Positions 27,027 through 31,756 of a stretch of 33,255 nt of DNA are shown here, piece after piece. Below the pieces are notes generated by a model. It searched no databases. It was not told where the DNA came from and was given only the letters and a program-made list of their open reading frames with translations. Position numbers and translations under genes: made by a program. How positions within the stretch are numbered: the stretch's first letter is position 1; each line of letters starts with the position of its first letter. This DNA is from a virus (lineage: Duplodnaviria; Heunggongvirae; Uroviricota; Caudoviricetes), in IMG/VR virus record IMGVR_UViG_2737471834_000009. One strand, 5' to 3'.

Positions 27027-27028
27027 TG

Positions 27029-27054
27029 ACCCGCTGCTGGCGGGTTTTTTCTTT
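27029..27054 (+). terminator. intrinsic terminator-like hairpin between tail completion and major tail genes
   Basis: CCCGC-TGCTG-GCGGG followed by TTTTTTCTTTT. Confidence 0.6.
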
Positions 27055-27067
27055 TCAGGAGATGTAT

Positions 27068-27784
27068 ATGCCATCTAATTATGAACGATCCCAGTTGACG
27101 CAGGTGATGATTTCATCCGCTCCCGTAAGGCCTGAAACCGTGGAGAAAGCGGAATACCTGCGTCTGGACTGTACCATCAAGGAAGTCCAGTTTACTGCGG
27201 GTCAGAAACAGGATGTTGACGTGACAACGCTTTGCTCCACAGAACAGGAGAATATCAACGGCCTTGGATCTCCATCCGAGATTTCAATGTCGGGTAACTT
27301 CTTTATGAATCCTGCACAGAACGCCCTGCGTGATGCGTATGATAATGACAGTGTGTATGCATTTAAGGTGCAGTTTCCGTCCGGACGTGGGTTTAAGTTT
27401 ATGGCAGAAGTACGTCAGCATACCTGGTCTTCCGGCACTAATGGCGTGGTGGCTGCGACTTTTTCCCTGCGTCTGAAAGGGAAGCCTTCGCTGTATGTGG
27501 TACCACTGGATTTTGTGCGTAACCTTCCGGAAGCGCATGTGGTGACGACAGGATCATTACTGACGCTGTCTGTTGCGGTCAGTGGAGGTACTCCGCCTTA
27601 CAGCTATACCTGGTATAAAGACGGTAAGGCTGTGGCTGACCAGACTACAGACACGTTCAATAAAGCCGGTGCGCAGACGGAGGATACTGGCGAGTACACT
27701 TGTACGGTGATGGATTCGGCGAATCAGCCTCTGAGTGTCACATCACTGGCGTGTCAGGTGATGGTGAATGCGGTAACCGGATAA
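27068..27784 (+). CDS. major tail protein with C-terminal Ig-like domain
   Basis: RBS AGGAG before the ATG; C-terminal segment with Ig-like signature (TLSVAVSGGTPPYSYTWYKDGK...GEYTCTV). Confidence 0.8.
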   Translation: MPSNYERSQLTQVMISSAPVRPETVEKAEYLRLDCTIKEVQFTAGQKQDVDVTTLCSTEQENINGLGSPSEISMSGNFFMNPAQNALRDAYDNDSVYAFKVQFPSGRGFKFMAEVRQHTWSSGTNGVVAATFSLRLKGKPSLYVVPLDFVRNLPEAHVVTTGSLLTLSVAVSGGTPPYSYTWYKDGKAVADQTTDTFNKAGAQTEDTGEYTCTVMDSANQPLSVTSLACQVMVNAVTG

Positions 27785-27793
27785 GGAAATGTC

Positions 27794-28165
27794 ATGGAAA
27801 AAGATTTAAAAACGCTGGCGCTGTCAACGATGGCGGGGTTTCGTCATAAGACAGTGGTGGTACCGGAATGGGACGGTGCTACGGTAGTGCTGAGGGAGCC
27901 GTCAGCTGAAGCCTGGCTACGCTGGCAGGAGATAGTCAGACAGGAAAAGGGGGAAACGCCGTTGTCCGTTTCGGTACGGGCCCGCCGGGATCTGGAAGCC
28001 GATGTTGAGTTGTTCATTGATGTTTTGTGCGATACCGGGATGAAAAAGGTATTTTCTGCGGGTGATCGGGAACAGGTACTGGCAGTGTATGGTCCTGTGC
28101 ATACGCGACTATTGCGGCAGGCGCTGGAGCTGGTTACTGATGCCGGTGAGGTTAAAAAAAAATAG
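27794..28165 (+). CDS. tail assembly chaperone (lambda G-like)
   Basis: 123-aa ORF ending in the A-run slippery site; followed by an ORF in the -1 frame. Confidence 0.8.
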   Translation: MEKDLKTLALSTMAGFRHKTVVVPEWDGATVVLREPSAEAWLRWQEIVRQEKGETPLSVSVRARRDLEADVELFIDVLCDTGMKKVFSAGDREQVLAVYGPVHTRLLRQALELVTDAGEVKKK

Positions 28166-28467
28166 CCATGCCGGGGATACGTTTTCTGATGATGCTGGCG
28201 CTCCGGATGGGGCGCACATTGTCAGAATTACGCCGGGAAATGTCCGCATCAGAAATCATGATGTGGGCAGAATTTGACAGGTTCAGTCCGCTGGGTGACG
28301 AGCGGGCTGATATCCGGGCTGCCCAGATAGTTTCTGCGGTTTACGGTGCGCAGGGTGTCAAAGTATCACTGAATGATGCGCTTCTTCAGTGGGAGAAGGA
28401 GCAGACAGAAGGCACCTCAGATCCATTTGCCGGACTGGAAAATGCGCTTTTAACCGTATCTCAGTGA
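28150..28467 (+). CDS. tail assembly chaperone frameshift extension (lambda T-like; expressed as G-T fusion)
   Basis: -1 frame ORF continuing from the slippery site; canonical position between the chaperone and tape measure genes. Confidence 0.7.
28154..28162 (+). other. programmed -1 ribosomal frameshift site (A9 slippery run)
   Basis: GTT AAA AAA AAA TAG at the end of the G-like gene; downstream ORF (28168-28467) is in the -1 frame. Confidence 0.7.
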
Positions 28468-28475
28468 GTCGACAT

Positions 28476-28497
28476 AACCGCTTCGGCGGTTTTTTTT
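28476..28497 (+). terminator. intrinsic terminator-like hairpin before the tape measure gene
   Basis: AACCGC-TTCG-GCGGTT followed by T7. Confidence 0.55.
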
Positions 28498-28507
28498 CGT
28501 CCGGAGA

Positions 28508-31500
28508 ATGAGAATGGCGACATTACGTGAACTGATTATTAAAATTTCGGCAAATTCCCGGTCATTCCAGTCAGAGATCGCCCGGGCTTCACGTATGGGG
28601 CAGGATTACTACCGCACCATGCAGAACGGAGGCCGACAGTCTGCTGCTGCATCCCGTGAAATGCGGCGGGCGCTGGCAGAAGTGACGGATCAGATAAATA
28701 CGGCTAAATCTTCGGCACTGAGTATGGCGGGAGCATTTGCCGGGGTTTTTGCCACCGGGCATCTGATTTCCCTTGCCGATGAGTGGAATTCAGTCAATGC
28801 CCGTCTGAAACAGGCGACACAATCCAGTGATGATTTTCAGGCATCACAGCGTGAATTAATGGCAATCAGCCAGAGAACGGGGACGGCGTTTTCTGATAAC
28901 GCCAGCCTTTTTGCCCGCTCTGCAGCTTCCATGCGGGAGTATGGCTACAGTTCTGAGGAGGTCCTGAAAGTCACTGAGGCGATTTCCACGGGGCTGAAAT
29001 TATCCGGTGCCAGTACAGCAGAAGCCAGTTCGGTGATCACGCAGTTCAGTCAGGCTCTGGCGCAGGGAGTGCTGCGCGGTGAAGAGTTTAACGCTGTGAA
29101 TGAGAACGGCGATCGTGTTATTCGTGCTCTGGCTGCGGGAATGGGAGTTGCCCGTAAGGATCTAAAGGCCATGGCGGATAACGGAAAGTTGACCGCCGAT
29201 AAGGTTGTTCCTGCACTGATTAGTCAGCTTGGGGCATTACGTGATGAATATGCGGCAATGCCTGATACGGTTTCATCCTCTGCAACCAAAGTTGAAAACG
29301 CCTTTATGGCCTGGGTTGGTGGTGCGAACGAGGCAAGCGGAGTGACGAAGACGCTCTCCGGTGTGCTGAATGGTATTGCAGGCAATATTGACACCGTGGC
29401 AACCGCTGCCGGTGCTCTGGTTGCCGTCGGGGTAGCCCGATATTTTGGCAATATGGCGTCGTCTGCTGGATCTGCAACTGCCGGATTAATTACTGCAGCC
29501 AGAAACGAAGTGGCTCTTGCTGAAGCGCAACTTCGGGGGACACAGATAGCAACCGCCAGGGCGCGTGCGGCGGTTTATCGTGCGCAACAGGCGGTTGTTG
29601 CTGCTCGCGGTACCGAAAGGCAGGCCGCAGCAGAAGCGAAGCTGACAGCTGCCCAGGCGTCACTTACCCGTAATATTGCGGCCAGAACAGCGGCACAGAC
29701 AACGCTGAATACTGTCACGTCAGTGGGGAGTCGTCTGTTAAGTGGTGCGCTGGGGTTGGTTGGTGGTGTGCCGGGACTCGTCATGCTGGGGGCGACGGCC
29801 TGGTACACGATGTATCAGAATCAGGAGCAGGCCAGAGAATCTGCACGCCAGTATGCCGCAACAATCGACGAAATTCGCCAGAAAACGTCGGCAATGTCGC
29901 TTCCTGAAGCGTCAGATAATGAGGAAAAGACGCGGCAGGCACTTGATGAGCAAAACAGGTTAATTGACGAGCAGAAAAGTAAGATTAAATCCTTACAGGA
30001 AAAAATTGCTGGCTATCAGTATGTGCTGGCAAACCCGGGCTGGACAACCGATAACGGTTTTATGATTAACCACATGACGTCGGTAAAAACTGTCACAGAA
30101 GGGCTTGCAGAAGCAACAAATCAACTGGCAGTTGAACAGTCCCGTCTCACACAAATGCAGGGCAAAGCGCAATCCATTCAGGATGTGCTTGCCGGGCTGG
30201 AGGAGCGACGGGTGGCGTTGATCCGTCAACAGGCCGCGGAACAAAACAAAGCGTATCAGTCCCTGTTGATCATGAATGGGCAGCATACCGAGTTTAATCG
30301 CCTTCTCGGGCTCGGTAATGAATTACTTCAGCAGCGACAGGGGCTGGTGAATGTACCGTTACGTCTGCCACAGGCAACCCTGGATGATAAACAGCAGGAC
30401 GCACTGAAAAAAAGCCAGCAGGCGCTGGAGTTGTCCCGTCTCAAAGGCGAGGCCAGAGAACGCGTGCGTCTCGGATATGCTGCTGATGATCTTGGCTTTG
30501 TCGGCGACAAATATCAGACTGCACGCCAGGAATTCATCAGTACAGGGATGGAGACCTGGCGCAATAATGAGGCGAATAAGCCGAAGAGAAAAGGGCCAAA
30601 ATCGGAAGCTGAAAAAGCAGAAGATGTTTACAACAGGCTGATTAAACAGCAGAAAGAACAGCTTGCACTGGCAGGACAGAATACCGAACTGGCGAAAATG
30701 AAATACCAGGTCAGCCAGGGTGAGCTGACCACCCTTTCGTCTGCACAGAAGCAACTTTTGCTACAGAATGCGGCGCTGATTGACCAGAAAAATATCCGGC
30801 AACAGCTTGCCGCATATGAAGCTAATCTGGCCGATGAGAACGCCAGCCGTCGGTCATCGTATCGGGAAGAACTCACGGGTTACGGTCAGGGTACGCGGAT
30901 GCGGGAGCGCATGCAGGAGGCGTTACGTATTCGTGAAGCGTTTTTGCAAAAAAATCAGGATTTACAAAGACAGTATCAGTCCGGGGATATTACGGAGGAA
31001 CTGTTCCGTCAGGAGAAGGCGCTGAACGCGCAGTACCTGAGCGAGCGTCTGAAGGACAACGCTGAATTTTATGCAGCGCTGGATCAACAGCGCAGTGACT
31101 GGATGGCGGGAATGCGTGAAGGTCTGGCGAACTGGGCTGACAACGCGTCGGATTATGCCGGTCAGATGGCGTCTGCTGCAGGGACTGCAATGGACGGTCT
31201 GGTGAATAATATAACCGAAGCCCTGTCAGGTAACCTTGTGGCATGGCGTGACTGGGCGGCGGCTGTCCTGAAGGAGATCTCCGGAATTCTGATGAGTGTC
31301 GCCATTGTGAACGGTCTGAAATCACTGGCCGGGTCAATGTCTGGTATGGGCGGACTGGCCGGTGGTATTGGTAACTGGTTGTCCGGCGCACTGAAGAATG
31401 CCAGAGGTGGCGTTTACGCATCCGCAGGTCTGAGCGCTTACAGTAACAGCATTGTCGATACACCAACGTATTTCGCTTTTGCGAAAGGGATCGGCCTGAT

Positions 31501-31756
31501 GGGCGAGGCCGGGCCGGAGGCCATCATGCCGCTGGCACGGACGGCTGACGGCTCTCTGGGAGTACGTGTTGCAGGTAATGCCGGCAGTACGGGAGGATTT
31601 GTCTATTCTCCGGTGTACAATATCGCCATACAGAACGATGGCAGCAGTGGGCAGATTGGTCCGGAGGCAGCGAGTGGTCTGGTTGGTCTGATTGACCAGC
31701 GTGTGCGTGCAGTAATGCTGTCCATGCGACGTGACGGGGGGATGCTGAGTGACTGA
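28508..31756 (+). CDS. tail tape measure protein
   Basis: 1082-aa, alanine/glutamine-rich and largely helical; position after the G/T chaperone genes. Confidence 0.9.
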   Translation: MRMATLRELIIKISANSRSFQSEIARASRMGQDYYRTMQNGGRQSAAASREMRRALAEVTDQINTAKSSALSMAGAFAGVFATGHLISLADEWNSVNARLKQATQSSDDFQASQRELMAISQRTGTAFSDNASLFARSAASMREYGYSSEEVLKVTEAISTGLKLSGASTAEASSVITQFSQALAQGVLRGEEFNAVNENGDRVIRALAAGMGVARKDLKAMADNGKLTADKVVPALISQLGALRDEYAAMPDTVSSSATKVENAFMAWVGGANEASGVTKTLSGVLNGIAGNIDTVATAAGALVAVGVARYFGNMASSAGSATAGLITAARNEVALAEAQLRGTQIATARARAAVYRAQQAVVAARGTERQAAAEAKLTAAQASLTRNIAARTAAQTTLNTVTSVGSRLLSGALGLVGGVPGLVMLGATAWYTMYQNQEQARESARQYAATIDEIRQKTSAMSLPEASDNEEKTRQALDEQNRLIDEQKSKIKSLQEKIAGYQYVLANPGWTTDNGFMINHMTSVKTVTEGLAEATNQLAVEQSRLTQMQGKAQSIQDVLAGLEERRVALIRQQAAEQNKAYQSLLIMNGQHTEFNRLLGLGNELLQQRQGLVNVPLRLPQATLDDKQQDALKKSQQALELSRLKGEARERVRLGYAADDLGFVGDKYQTARQEFISTGMETWRNNEANKPKRKGPKSEAEKAEDVYNRLIKQQKEQLALAGQNTELAKMKYQVSQGELTTLSSAQKQLLLQNAALIDQKNIRQQLAAYEANLADENASRRSSYREELTGYGQGTRMRERMQEALRIREAFLQKNQDLQRQYQSGDITEELFRQEKALNAQYLSERLKDNAEFYAALDQQRSDWMAGMREGLANWADNASDYAGQMASAAGTAMDGLVNNITEALSGNLVAWRDWAAAVLKEISGILMSVAIVNGLKSLAGSMSGMGGLAGGIGNWLSGALKNARGGVYASAGLSAYSNSIVDTPTYFAFAKGIGLMGEAGPEAIMPLARTADGSLGVRVAGNAGSTGGFVYSPVYNIAIQNDGSSGQIGPEAASGLVGLIDQRVRAVMLSMRRDGGMLSD

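Follow-up and report, generated by a model that had tools for sequence, protein, structure and literature searches.

Two tail assembly chaperones, G and the longer GT, are made by phage lambda from overlapping frames that lie between the genes for the major tail and tape measure proteins, by a low-level −1 shift on the heptamer G_GGA_AAG for which no stimulator is required (PMC5009743, which summarizes Levin et al. 1993 and Xu et al. 2004, 2013, 2014). The lambda G:GT ratio is about 30:1 and is required for assembly, and the T domain has to be attached to G in order to act (PMC5009743). Phage HK97 encodes the pair gp13/gp14, recorded as a joined CDS "translated due to a -1 frameshift", in which the shift takes place on ...G_GAA_AAG..., 15 nt before the G stop and within a 52-nt overlap. 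In a 41-member HK97-like cluster labeled "phage tail assembly chaperone", reporter assays on two of the genes measured frameshifting at 6% and 7% (PMC3711429).

Runs of lysine codons serve as slip sites in other settings as well. Escherichia coli dnaX combines A_AAA_AAG with an upstream Shine-Dalgarno (SD) element and a downstream hairpin, whereas Thermus thermophilus dnaX uses a run of nine and transcriptional slippage, and the pair shows that a one-base difference (A6G versus A9) can shift recoding from the ribosome to RNA polymerase (PMC5009743, PMC1088944). IS1 and IS3 elements produce a fusion of the transposase frames orfA and orfB in low, set amounts (PMC4066793). The natural −1 heptamers that dominate there are A_AAA_AAA and A_AAA_AAG, which together account for 72%, and the former has been proven to work in IS elements as a site of ribosomal −1 shifting (PMC4066793). 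The tetramers on which such sites depend follow a hierarchy that runs from A_AAG, by far the strongest, down to A_AAA (PMC4066793), and replacement of AAG by AAA lowers ribosomal shiftiness in E. coli (PMC5009743).

Here, we analyze a 33,255-nt stretch of viral DNA (hereafter the window) that matches, at 100% identity, a prophage of E. coli GXU-23-25-310. The original prediction for this DNA was a programmed −1 shift of the G/GT type at a run of A residues, fusing two tail-chaperone frames. Homology and comparison with relatives back that proposal, and the locus very probably serves as G/GT recoding site in the tail module of an HK97-like siphophage that is integrated in E. coli as a prophage.

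Results

Gene order and protein families

The genes of the window follow the order major tail, G, T, tape measure (Table 1), which places the two small ORFs where a G/GT pair is found. Lambda M- and L-like minor tail proteins, identified by Pfam and PHROG matches, come after the tape measure gene, and the head and tail genes around G and T are intact. Pfam PF06222 (Phage_TAC_1) matches the G-like ORF with an E value of 1.4e-52 (177 bits against a cutoff of 25), and PF06223 (Phage_tail_T) matches the T-like ORF with an E value of 3e-20 (72.8 bits against a cutoff of 25.9). Both halves are significant profile and sequence matches to the HK97 gp13/gp14 family, with 59% identity to HK97 over the 224-aa fusion (residues 1 to 224), and gene order, direction of the shift, and aligned shift position relative to the T domain are the same as in that phage. 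The G-like ORF also matches phrog_344, "tail assembly chaperone", and, at an E value of 5e-45, PDB entry 2OB9, deposited as "Tail assembly chaperone", which we take to be an HK97 protein. Among the PHROG matches of the T-like ORF, phrog_337 is a T-only family. The profile of phrog_14766 spans 224 positions, of which G covers 2 to 121 and T covers 127 to 221; this is a family built from annotated fusions, and its length is exactly that predicted for GT. No NCBIfam model matches G, T, or GT.

The window also differs from HK97. Its A_AAA_AAA abuts the G stop within a much shorter overlap of 10 nt, and where HK97 carries the moron gp15 between gp14 and the tape measure gene, the window keeps only a terminator-like hairpin. 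The likeness to lambda lies in the two-product organization and in the T domain, which is homologous (Pfam describes Phage_tail_T as "Minor tail protein T"); the G of the window is placed by Pfam in Phage_TAC_1. On the E. coli GXU-23-25-310 prophage, PGAP names G a "phage tail assembly chaperone" and calls T as a gene apart, a 92-aa "phage tail assembly protein T" beginning at ATG 28189, without a slippage feature.

Table 1. Features of the G/T locus, in coordinates of the window
Feature	Coordinates	Strand	Basis
Major tail (tube) protein with C-terminal Ig-like domain, upstream of G	27068..27784	+	phrog_158 "major tail protein", E 1.5e-98; Pfam Ig_3, Ig_2, I-set; PGAP coordinates
G-like ORF for a tail assembly chaperone, zero frame, 123 aa, C terminus GEVKKK*	27794..28165	+	Pfam, PHROG, and PDB matches; PGAP product
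Lineage-specific hairpin of 11 bp and −14.5 kcal/mol whose loop holds the A run	28143..28174	+	z −3.47; 0/200 shuffles as stable
TAA stop in the −1 frame, 5′ limit of the shift window	28153..28155	+	−1 frame translation
A9 run at the 3′ end of G, exactly nine bases, three in-frame AAA Lys codons	28154..28162	+	Sequence; identical in L001 and L012-L017
Slippery heptamer A_AAA_AAA (X_XXY_YYZ), sole place for a −1 G-to-T join	28156..28162	+	Lines up column for column with A_AAA_AAG, G_GAA_AAG, or xxA_AAG of relatives
T-frame (−1) segment predicted to follow the shift, ATA GCC ATG CCG ... TGA, 101 aa (IAMPGIRFLMM...TVSQ)	28162..28467	+	Pfam PF06223, phrog_14766, translation
Zero-frame TAG directly 3′ of the heptamer, 3′ limit of the shift window, possibly a "shifty stop"	28163..28165	+	Sequence; stop right after slip site in most relatives
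Lineage-specific ATG, 2 nt past the G stop, possible re-initiation codon for free T	28168..28170	+	Weak SD pairing 14 nt upstream; in 3′ arm of hairpin
Conserved Met codon (F-L-M motif), PGAP start of 92-aa "tail assembly protein T"	28189..28191	+	Weak SD pairing 11 nt upstream; kept across most of the family alignment
Tape measure protein, 1,080 aa, HK97/lambda type, downstream of T	28514..31756	+	Pfam Phage_HK97_TLTM, E 4e-93; TMP_3; Tape_meas_lam_C; PGAP

Anatomy of the proposed frameshift site

The G-like ORF ends exactly as had been described, with GTT (28151-28153), AAA AAA AAA (28154-28162), and TAG (28163-28165), and the run consists of nine A's. The T-like ORF, with an ATG at 28168 and its TGA stop at 28465-28467, lies in the −1 frame relative to G, in agreement with its translation. 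The proposal that it lacks a ribosome-binding site of its own is supported: the candidate starts at 28168, 28189, and 28192 pair only weakly with the anti-SD sequence, 11 to 14 nt upstream. Because the −1 frame is closed by the TAA at 28153-28155, it is open only from 28156, and the overlap between G and T is limited to 10 nt, namely A_AAA_AAA and the TAG. Neither this TAA nor the ATG that lies 2 nt past the TAG of G was part of the original prediction. The heptamer A_AAA_AAA is in the correct phase and fills the only position at which a −1 join is permitted. A fusion made there is predicted to comprise 123 + 101 = 224 aa, with the junction ...GEVKKK-IAMPGIRFLMM....

The presence of an A9 run is not unusual by itself, at least one such run being found somewhere in 56 of 100 shuffles of the 33-kb window; it is the phase and position that matter. 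With one phase and one position permitted, we calculate the chance that a random 7-mer in that place would have the form X_XXY_YYZ at about 1/256.

Conservation of the −1 arrangement

We compared the locus with 136 others, drawn from annotated phages, from IMG/VR contigs, from assemblies with an identical G protein, and from a set of one genome per species; they represent phages, viral contigs, and 40-odd bacterial species. At 134 of these loci T follows G in the −1 frame, and the slippery sites share the same columns of an ungapped alignment anchored on the T domain. The expectation of a conserved G/GT arrangement is thus borne out, with the −1 relation in nearly every related locus and the slip site at a fixed aligned column, and the arrangement is kept among homologues despite their divergence in sequence. 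The two loci scored in the zero frame are not real exceptions to the −1 rule. One (L115) has an indel inside G, and the other (L122) belongs to a degraded symbiont prophage in which one extra A (A9G, where the sister L110 has A8G) joins the two genes in frame, and the junction is the predicted one (...AKKK-VTQPGMQFLM...).

Outside the lineage of the window, AAG occupies the slip-site codon at 116 of 130 loci. A_AAA_AAG followed by a stop was found at 95 loci and the HK97-type G_GAA_AAG at 9, and 12 loci, of the Klebsiella and Pantoea types, have a stop after xGC_AAG or xxA_AAG; G_GGA_AAG or G_GAA_AAG placed 3 nt upstream of the slip column was found at 9. All of these other lineages have A8G, A7G, A6G, or no run. 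The T-frame residues V/I-x-x-P-G-x-x-F-L-M are kept upstream of the first ATG in the sister lineage, in HK97, and in the Stx phages, and the Burkholderia phages Bcep176 and KS9 are annotated with joined CDSs.

The closest relatives of the window are a sister lineage of E. coli prophages (phages Evi, phi467, and vB_EcoS-xxxR), with a 78% identical G, A_AAA_AAG TAG, and a 10-nt overlap, followed by the Stx-converting phages, with a 65% identical G, A_AAA_AAG TAG, and a 25-nt overlap. Both share with the window the stop directly after the heptamer. They differ from it in keeping the highly shift-prone AAG, in having a run of A8 or A6, and in having no ATG after the stop.

Origin of the A9 allele

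The same A9 junction is present in six other assemblies (L012-L017) and in RefSeq NZ_CM171611.1, and one of the A9 assemblies carries a G that is only 98% identical. Neither A8 nor A10 variants of this lineage were found among viral contigs and assemblies, and a metagenome scan for variants of the A-run length found nothing at all. The run is therefore real and stable rather than a sequencing artefact, being concordant in seven assemblies with no A8 or A10 variant. Its length is fixed at A9 in this lineage and is not shared by other lineages that have the two-ORF organization.

The sister lineage, which occurs in approximately 900 of 5,426 complete E. coli genomes, reads GTT AAA AAA AAG TAG at the same place. 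As judged from this comparison, A9 is the derived allele: one G-to-A change turns the A_AAA_AAG of the closest relatives into A_AAA_AAA and creates the run of nine. The change, at 28162, is synonymous in G (Lys) and conservative in T (GTA Val to ATA Ile).

One part of the original prediction found no support as far as ribosomes are concerned, namely that nine A's make a more extreme slippery site than the heptamer of lambda. The open overlap takes in no more than seven of the nine, and the published E. coli data, in which A_AAG far exceeds A_AAA, rank A_AAA_AAA below A_AAA_AAG (PMC5009743, PMC4066793). The extra length of A9 matters only for possible slippage by RNA polymerase.

Search for stimulatory elements

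No consensus pairs were returned by RNAalifold for 30 diverse family members. For the fold of the 100 nt after the heptamer, the z score is −1.5 in the window, and in the sister lineage it is −1.0; the corresponding fold is more stable in the Stx phages (z −2.5) and has a z score of 0.05 in HK97, and the structures differ. A downstream stimulatory structure was rejected on these grounds, namely the absence of consensus pairing, the weak z scores in the window and its sister lineage, and the different fold of the Stx phages. The nearest stable stem begins at least 21 nt 3′ of the heptamer, over conserved codons. A GC stem about 35 nt downstream (GCGCUCC/GGGGCGC) was likewise discarded as a stimulator, as it is too far away and overlaps the conserved LALRMGRT codons, as was an upstream SD stimulator, since the GAGG there stops 3 nt short of the heptamer and relatives do not keep it. 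The window thus departs from the dnaX-type cassette in having A_AAA_AAA rather than A_AAA_AAG, no SD approximately 10 nt 5′ of it, and no stable hairpin 5 to 9 nt 3′ of it. The IS1/IS3 sites, which share its heptamer, also differ from it in their usual downstream hairpin or pseudoknot and in the biology that they serve.

The hairpin that holds the A run in its loop (Table 1) has a less stable equivalent in the sister lineage (−10.2 kcal/mol, z −0.42) and none in the Stx lineage. It is probably incidental to the shift, because a ribosome or polymerase that occupies the run keeps it from forming. The hairpin buries the ATG at 28168, and it may disfavor de novo initiation there.

The stop directly 3′ of the slip site is kept in most relatives, and the TAG that follows the heptamer of the window may aid the shift by slowing A-site decoding, in the manner of a "shifty stop".

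Discussion

From the anatomy of the site, the homology of both halves, and the conserved frame relation and slip position, we infer that a shift occurs at this locus and that its products would serve as tail chaperones; the low efficiency and the routes given here are part of the same proposal. Most ribosomes would make the 123-aa G, stopping at the TAG at 28163-28165, and a minority would enter the −1 frame on A_AAA_AAA (28156-28162). The slip could follow either of two routes: two tRNA-Lys on AAA-AAA might re-pair one base back, or a peptidyl-tRNA-Lys might slip while the slowly decoded UAG sits in the A site. Shifted ribosomes would then read ATA GCC ATG CCG and continue to the TGA at 28465-28467, giving a GT of 224 aa. 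Part of the GT would likely also come from mRNAs that carry an extra A through RNA-polymerase slippage and would encode the same protein. By analogy with lambda, many copies of G and a few of GT would coat the tape measure protein through the G domain, the T domain would recruit the major tail protein, and neither G nor GT would stay in the virion.

A GT fusion is the best explanation of the locus, and on the comparative evidence we consider it highly likely. Several observations count against a shift at this site. The AAA of the window replaces an AAG that is otherwise family-wide, there is no conserved stimulatory RNA structure and no SD at the dnaX-like distance of approximately 10 nt, and PGAP and most depositors give T a gene of its own. 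A collection of 15 billion sequences does not contain the fused protein of 224 aa.

The annotation of a separate T corresponds to an alternative in which no fusion is made, T is translated alone, either by termination-reinitiation at the ATG at 28168 (TAG CC ATG) or by initiation at the ATG at 28189, and the A run is simply the Lys-rich C terminus of G. This lineage does have an ATG 2 nt past the G stop, PGAP chose the conserved Met codon at 28189, databases hold T-only proteins, of which the 92-aa form is found on 138 contigs, and phrog_337 covers T only. Against this, the position of the ATG at 28168 holds CTT in the sister lineage and has no ATG in HK97 or the Stx phages, yet the T-frame peptide that precedes the first ATG is kept in all three. 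The candidate starts of the window have their SD-like pairing 11 to 14 nt away, compared with 0 to 8 nt for 10 of 11 other starts tested in the operon, and the ATG at 28168 is enclosed in a hairpin of −14.5 kcal/mol. The HK97 annotation and the reporter data from its cluster favor a shift (PMC3711429), and the lambda T domain works only as part of GT (PMC5009743). Separate translation of T cannot explain the −1 relation at 134 of 136 loci or the slippery motif at a fixed column, and we regard it as very unlikely, although some free T may arise in this lineage, by re-initiation at 28168 or from a start at 28189, as a minor by-product. Less probable still, indeed scarcely credible, is that the nine A's are an artefact or a switch at the DNA level, whether a homopolymer sequencing error, a frameshift that split an ancestral single GT gene in a decaying prophage, or a phase-variable tract subject to replication slippage. 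Homopolymers are prone to error and mutation (PMC1088944), and the extra A of L122 fuses G and T in just such a degraded prophage. The same A9 is nevertheless found in seven independent assemblies, one of them with a 98% identical G, the viral contigs showed no A8 or A10 variant, the two-frame state is conserved in 134 of 136 loci, and the neighboring head and tail genes are intact. Sequencing error, pseudogenization, and phase variation of the DNA are excluded by this concordance of the assemblies together with the intact surrounding module.

A different question is which machine slips. GT in this lineage might be made mainly by RNA polymerase slipping on A9/T9, with A10 (or A7) mRNAs placing T in frame with G, in which case the G-to-A change would have switched recoding from translation to transcription, as between E. 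coli and T. thermophilus dnaX. A homopolymer of nine lies at the ORF junction (28154-28162), exactly that long and stable over seven assemblies, and at nine A's the RNA polymerase of bacteria slips efficiently in vivo, the nine-base run of T. thermophilus dnaX yielding approximately 50% alternative product (PMC5009743, PMC1088944). In many genomes, A/T runs in coding sequence come under negative selection from nine nucleotides upward (PMC1088944), and E. coli coding sequence has only one AAA_AAA_AAA (PMC5009743). The A9 allele also drops the AAG that makes the ribosomal site efficient, and by sequence logic an A10 mRNA would yield exactly the junction VKKK-IAMP, comparable to that of L122. Because such a message encodes the same GT, the protein product cannot tell the ribosomal route from that of the polymerase. 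The relatives, however, manage without a long run, on A6G, G_GGA_AAG, or just A_AAG, which argues that the mechanism of the family is ribosomal, and A_AAA_AAA already acts as a ribosomal −1 site in IS elements (PMC4066793). A high level of polymerase slippage would, moreover, generate A8 mRNAs that enter the +1 frame, open to 28277, and give a wasteful third product, and it could push GT well above the low ratio that lambda requires. A literature search found no tail assembly chaperone that relies mainly on transcriptional slippage for its long form. We therefore treat a predominantly transcriptional origin of GT in this lineage as a doubtful, if serious, alternative, and the more specific proposition that a single G-to-A transition handed most of GT synthesis over from the ribosome (A_AAA_AAG) to the polymerase (A9) seems to us somewhat less likely again.

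Under the preferred reading of a GT fusion, the pair is a member of the HK97 gp13/gp14 family of G/GT chaperones with lambda-like logic, and so a known kind of system with a minor variant of the slip site. It shares a poly-A Lys-codon slip site with dnaX of both E. coli and T. thermophilus, but the dnaX proteins are unrelated and their alternative product is truncated, whereas that of the window would be a longer fusion. What is new is a slip-site allele whose fused product is missing from the protein collection searched.

The finding calls for a correction of annotation to a joined CDS for a 224-aa GT, where PGAP and most phage records call a separate T of 92 aa from an internal Met. Correct annotation of GT matters for calls of prophage completeness and for phage engineering. 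A9 and the very common A8G allele of the sister lineage form a natural pair for measuring ribosomal versus transcriptional slippage at a Lys homopolymer, and the same pair can show how far tail assembly tolerates the resulting G:GT ratio. If the polymerase were to prove dominant in the A9 lineage, these two alleles, closely matched with a G that is 78% identical, would show how the G:GT ratio survives a change in the level at which recoding takes place.

RNA structure at the junction and neighboring features of the tail operon

The nine-A run at the end of the tail assembly chaperone gene G lies in the loop of a hairpin whose stability was equaled in 0 of 200 shuffles and whose 3′ arm covers both the TAG stop codon of G and the ATG at 28168. 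The substitutions that change GCG CTT to GCC ATG create this ATG and at the same time strengthen the hairpin, the counterpart of which is weaker in the sister lineage of E. coli prophages and absent from Stx phages. Translation in the open +1 frame, whether from a transcript one A short or after a +1 shift, would lengthen G by a predicted ~38 residues (NSHAGDTFSDD...). No conservation of this frame was evident, and in the sister lineage it stops at a different place.

Features in the vicinity of the G/T junction (window coordinates)
Feature	Position	Remarks
Major tail (tube) protein gene with in-frame C-terminal immunoglobulin-like domain	27068-27784	Pfam Ig_3, Ig_2, I-set
Terminator-like hairpin, T-rich tail	27028-27056	Shortly upstream of the PGAP major tail start
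+1 open frame	28044-28277	Overlaps the end of G; part from the TAG onward, 28163-28277
11-bp hairpin with the A run as loop	28143-28174	-14.5 kcal/mol
Terminator-like hairpin AACCGC-TTCG-GCGGTT, then T8	28476-28497	Between T stop and tape-measure start, within the late tail operon

Two terminator-like hairpins lie in this region. The downstream one may be a vestige or mark an unoccupied moron site; HK97 carries a moron (gp15) and a putative terminator at the matching position. The upstream hairpin would fall inside the major tail gene if translation started at ATG 27026, as in the mechanical ORF list, rather than at the PGAP start. The immunoglobulin-like domain occupies residues ~167-234 of the 252-aa ORF; PGAP names the major tail protein only "immunoglobulin domain-containing protein."

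G/T junctions in related proteins and loci

The G proteins P0003 and P0006 share a 90%-identity cluster (cluster 1, 793 members) with the T protein of the window, the two unrelated halves presumably being joined by a fused GT sequence among the members. A fusion is present in the DNA itself in L122 (1540-1600), a locus of Candidatus Symbiopectobacterium endolongispinus, where the junction reads GCC AAA AAA AAA GTA. This A9G has one A more than the A8G of the sister locus L110 and thus places G and T in one frame, with the product ...AEIAKKKVTQPGMQFLM... across the junction. Because the N-terminal part of G is disrupted as well, L122 looks like a decaying prophage within the symbiont genome.

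The heptamer is absent from L006, L105, L109 and L111 (Klebsiella/Raoultella) and from L116-L119 (Pantoea/Erwinia/Kalamiella). The junction in these loci consists only of GCA AAG and then TAA, an A_AAG tetramer adjoining the stop codon, and the overlap is 10-37 nt; in the Klebsiella/Raoultella loci an ATG again follows soon after the stop. If GT is made in these relatives, the route would be single-tRNA slippage at a "shifty stop."
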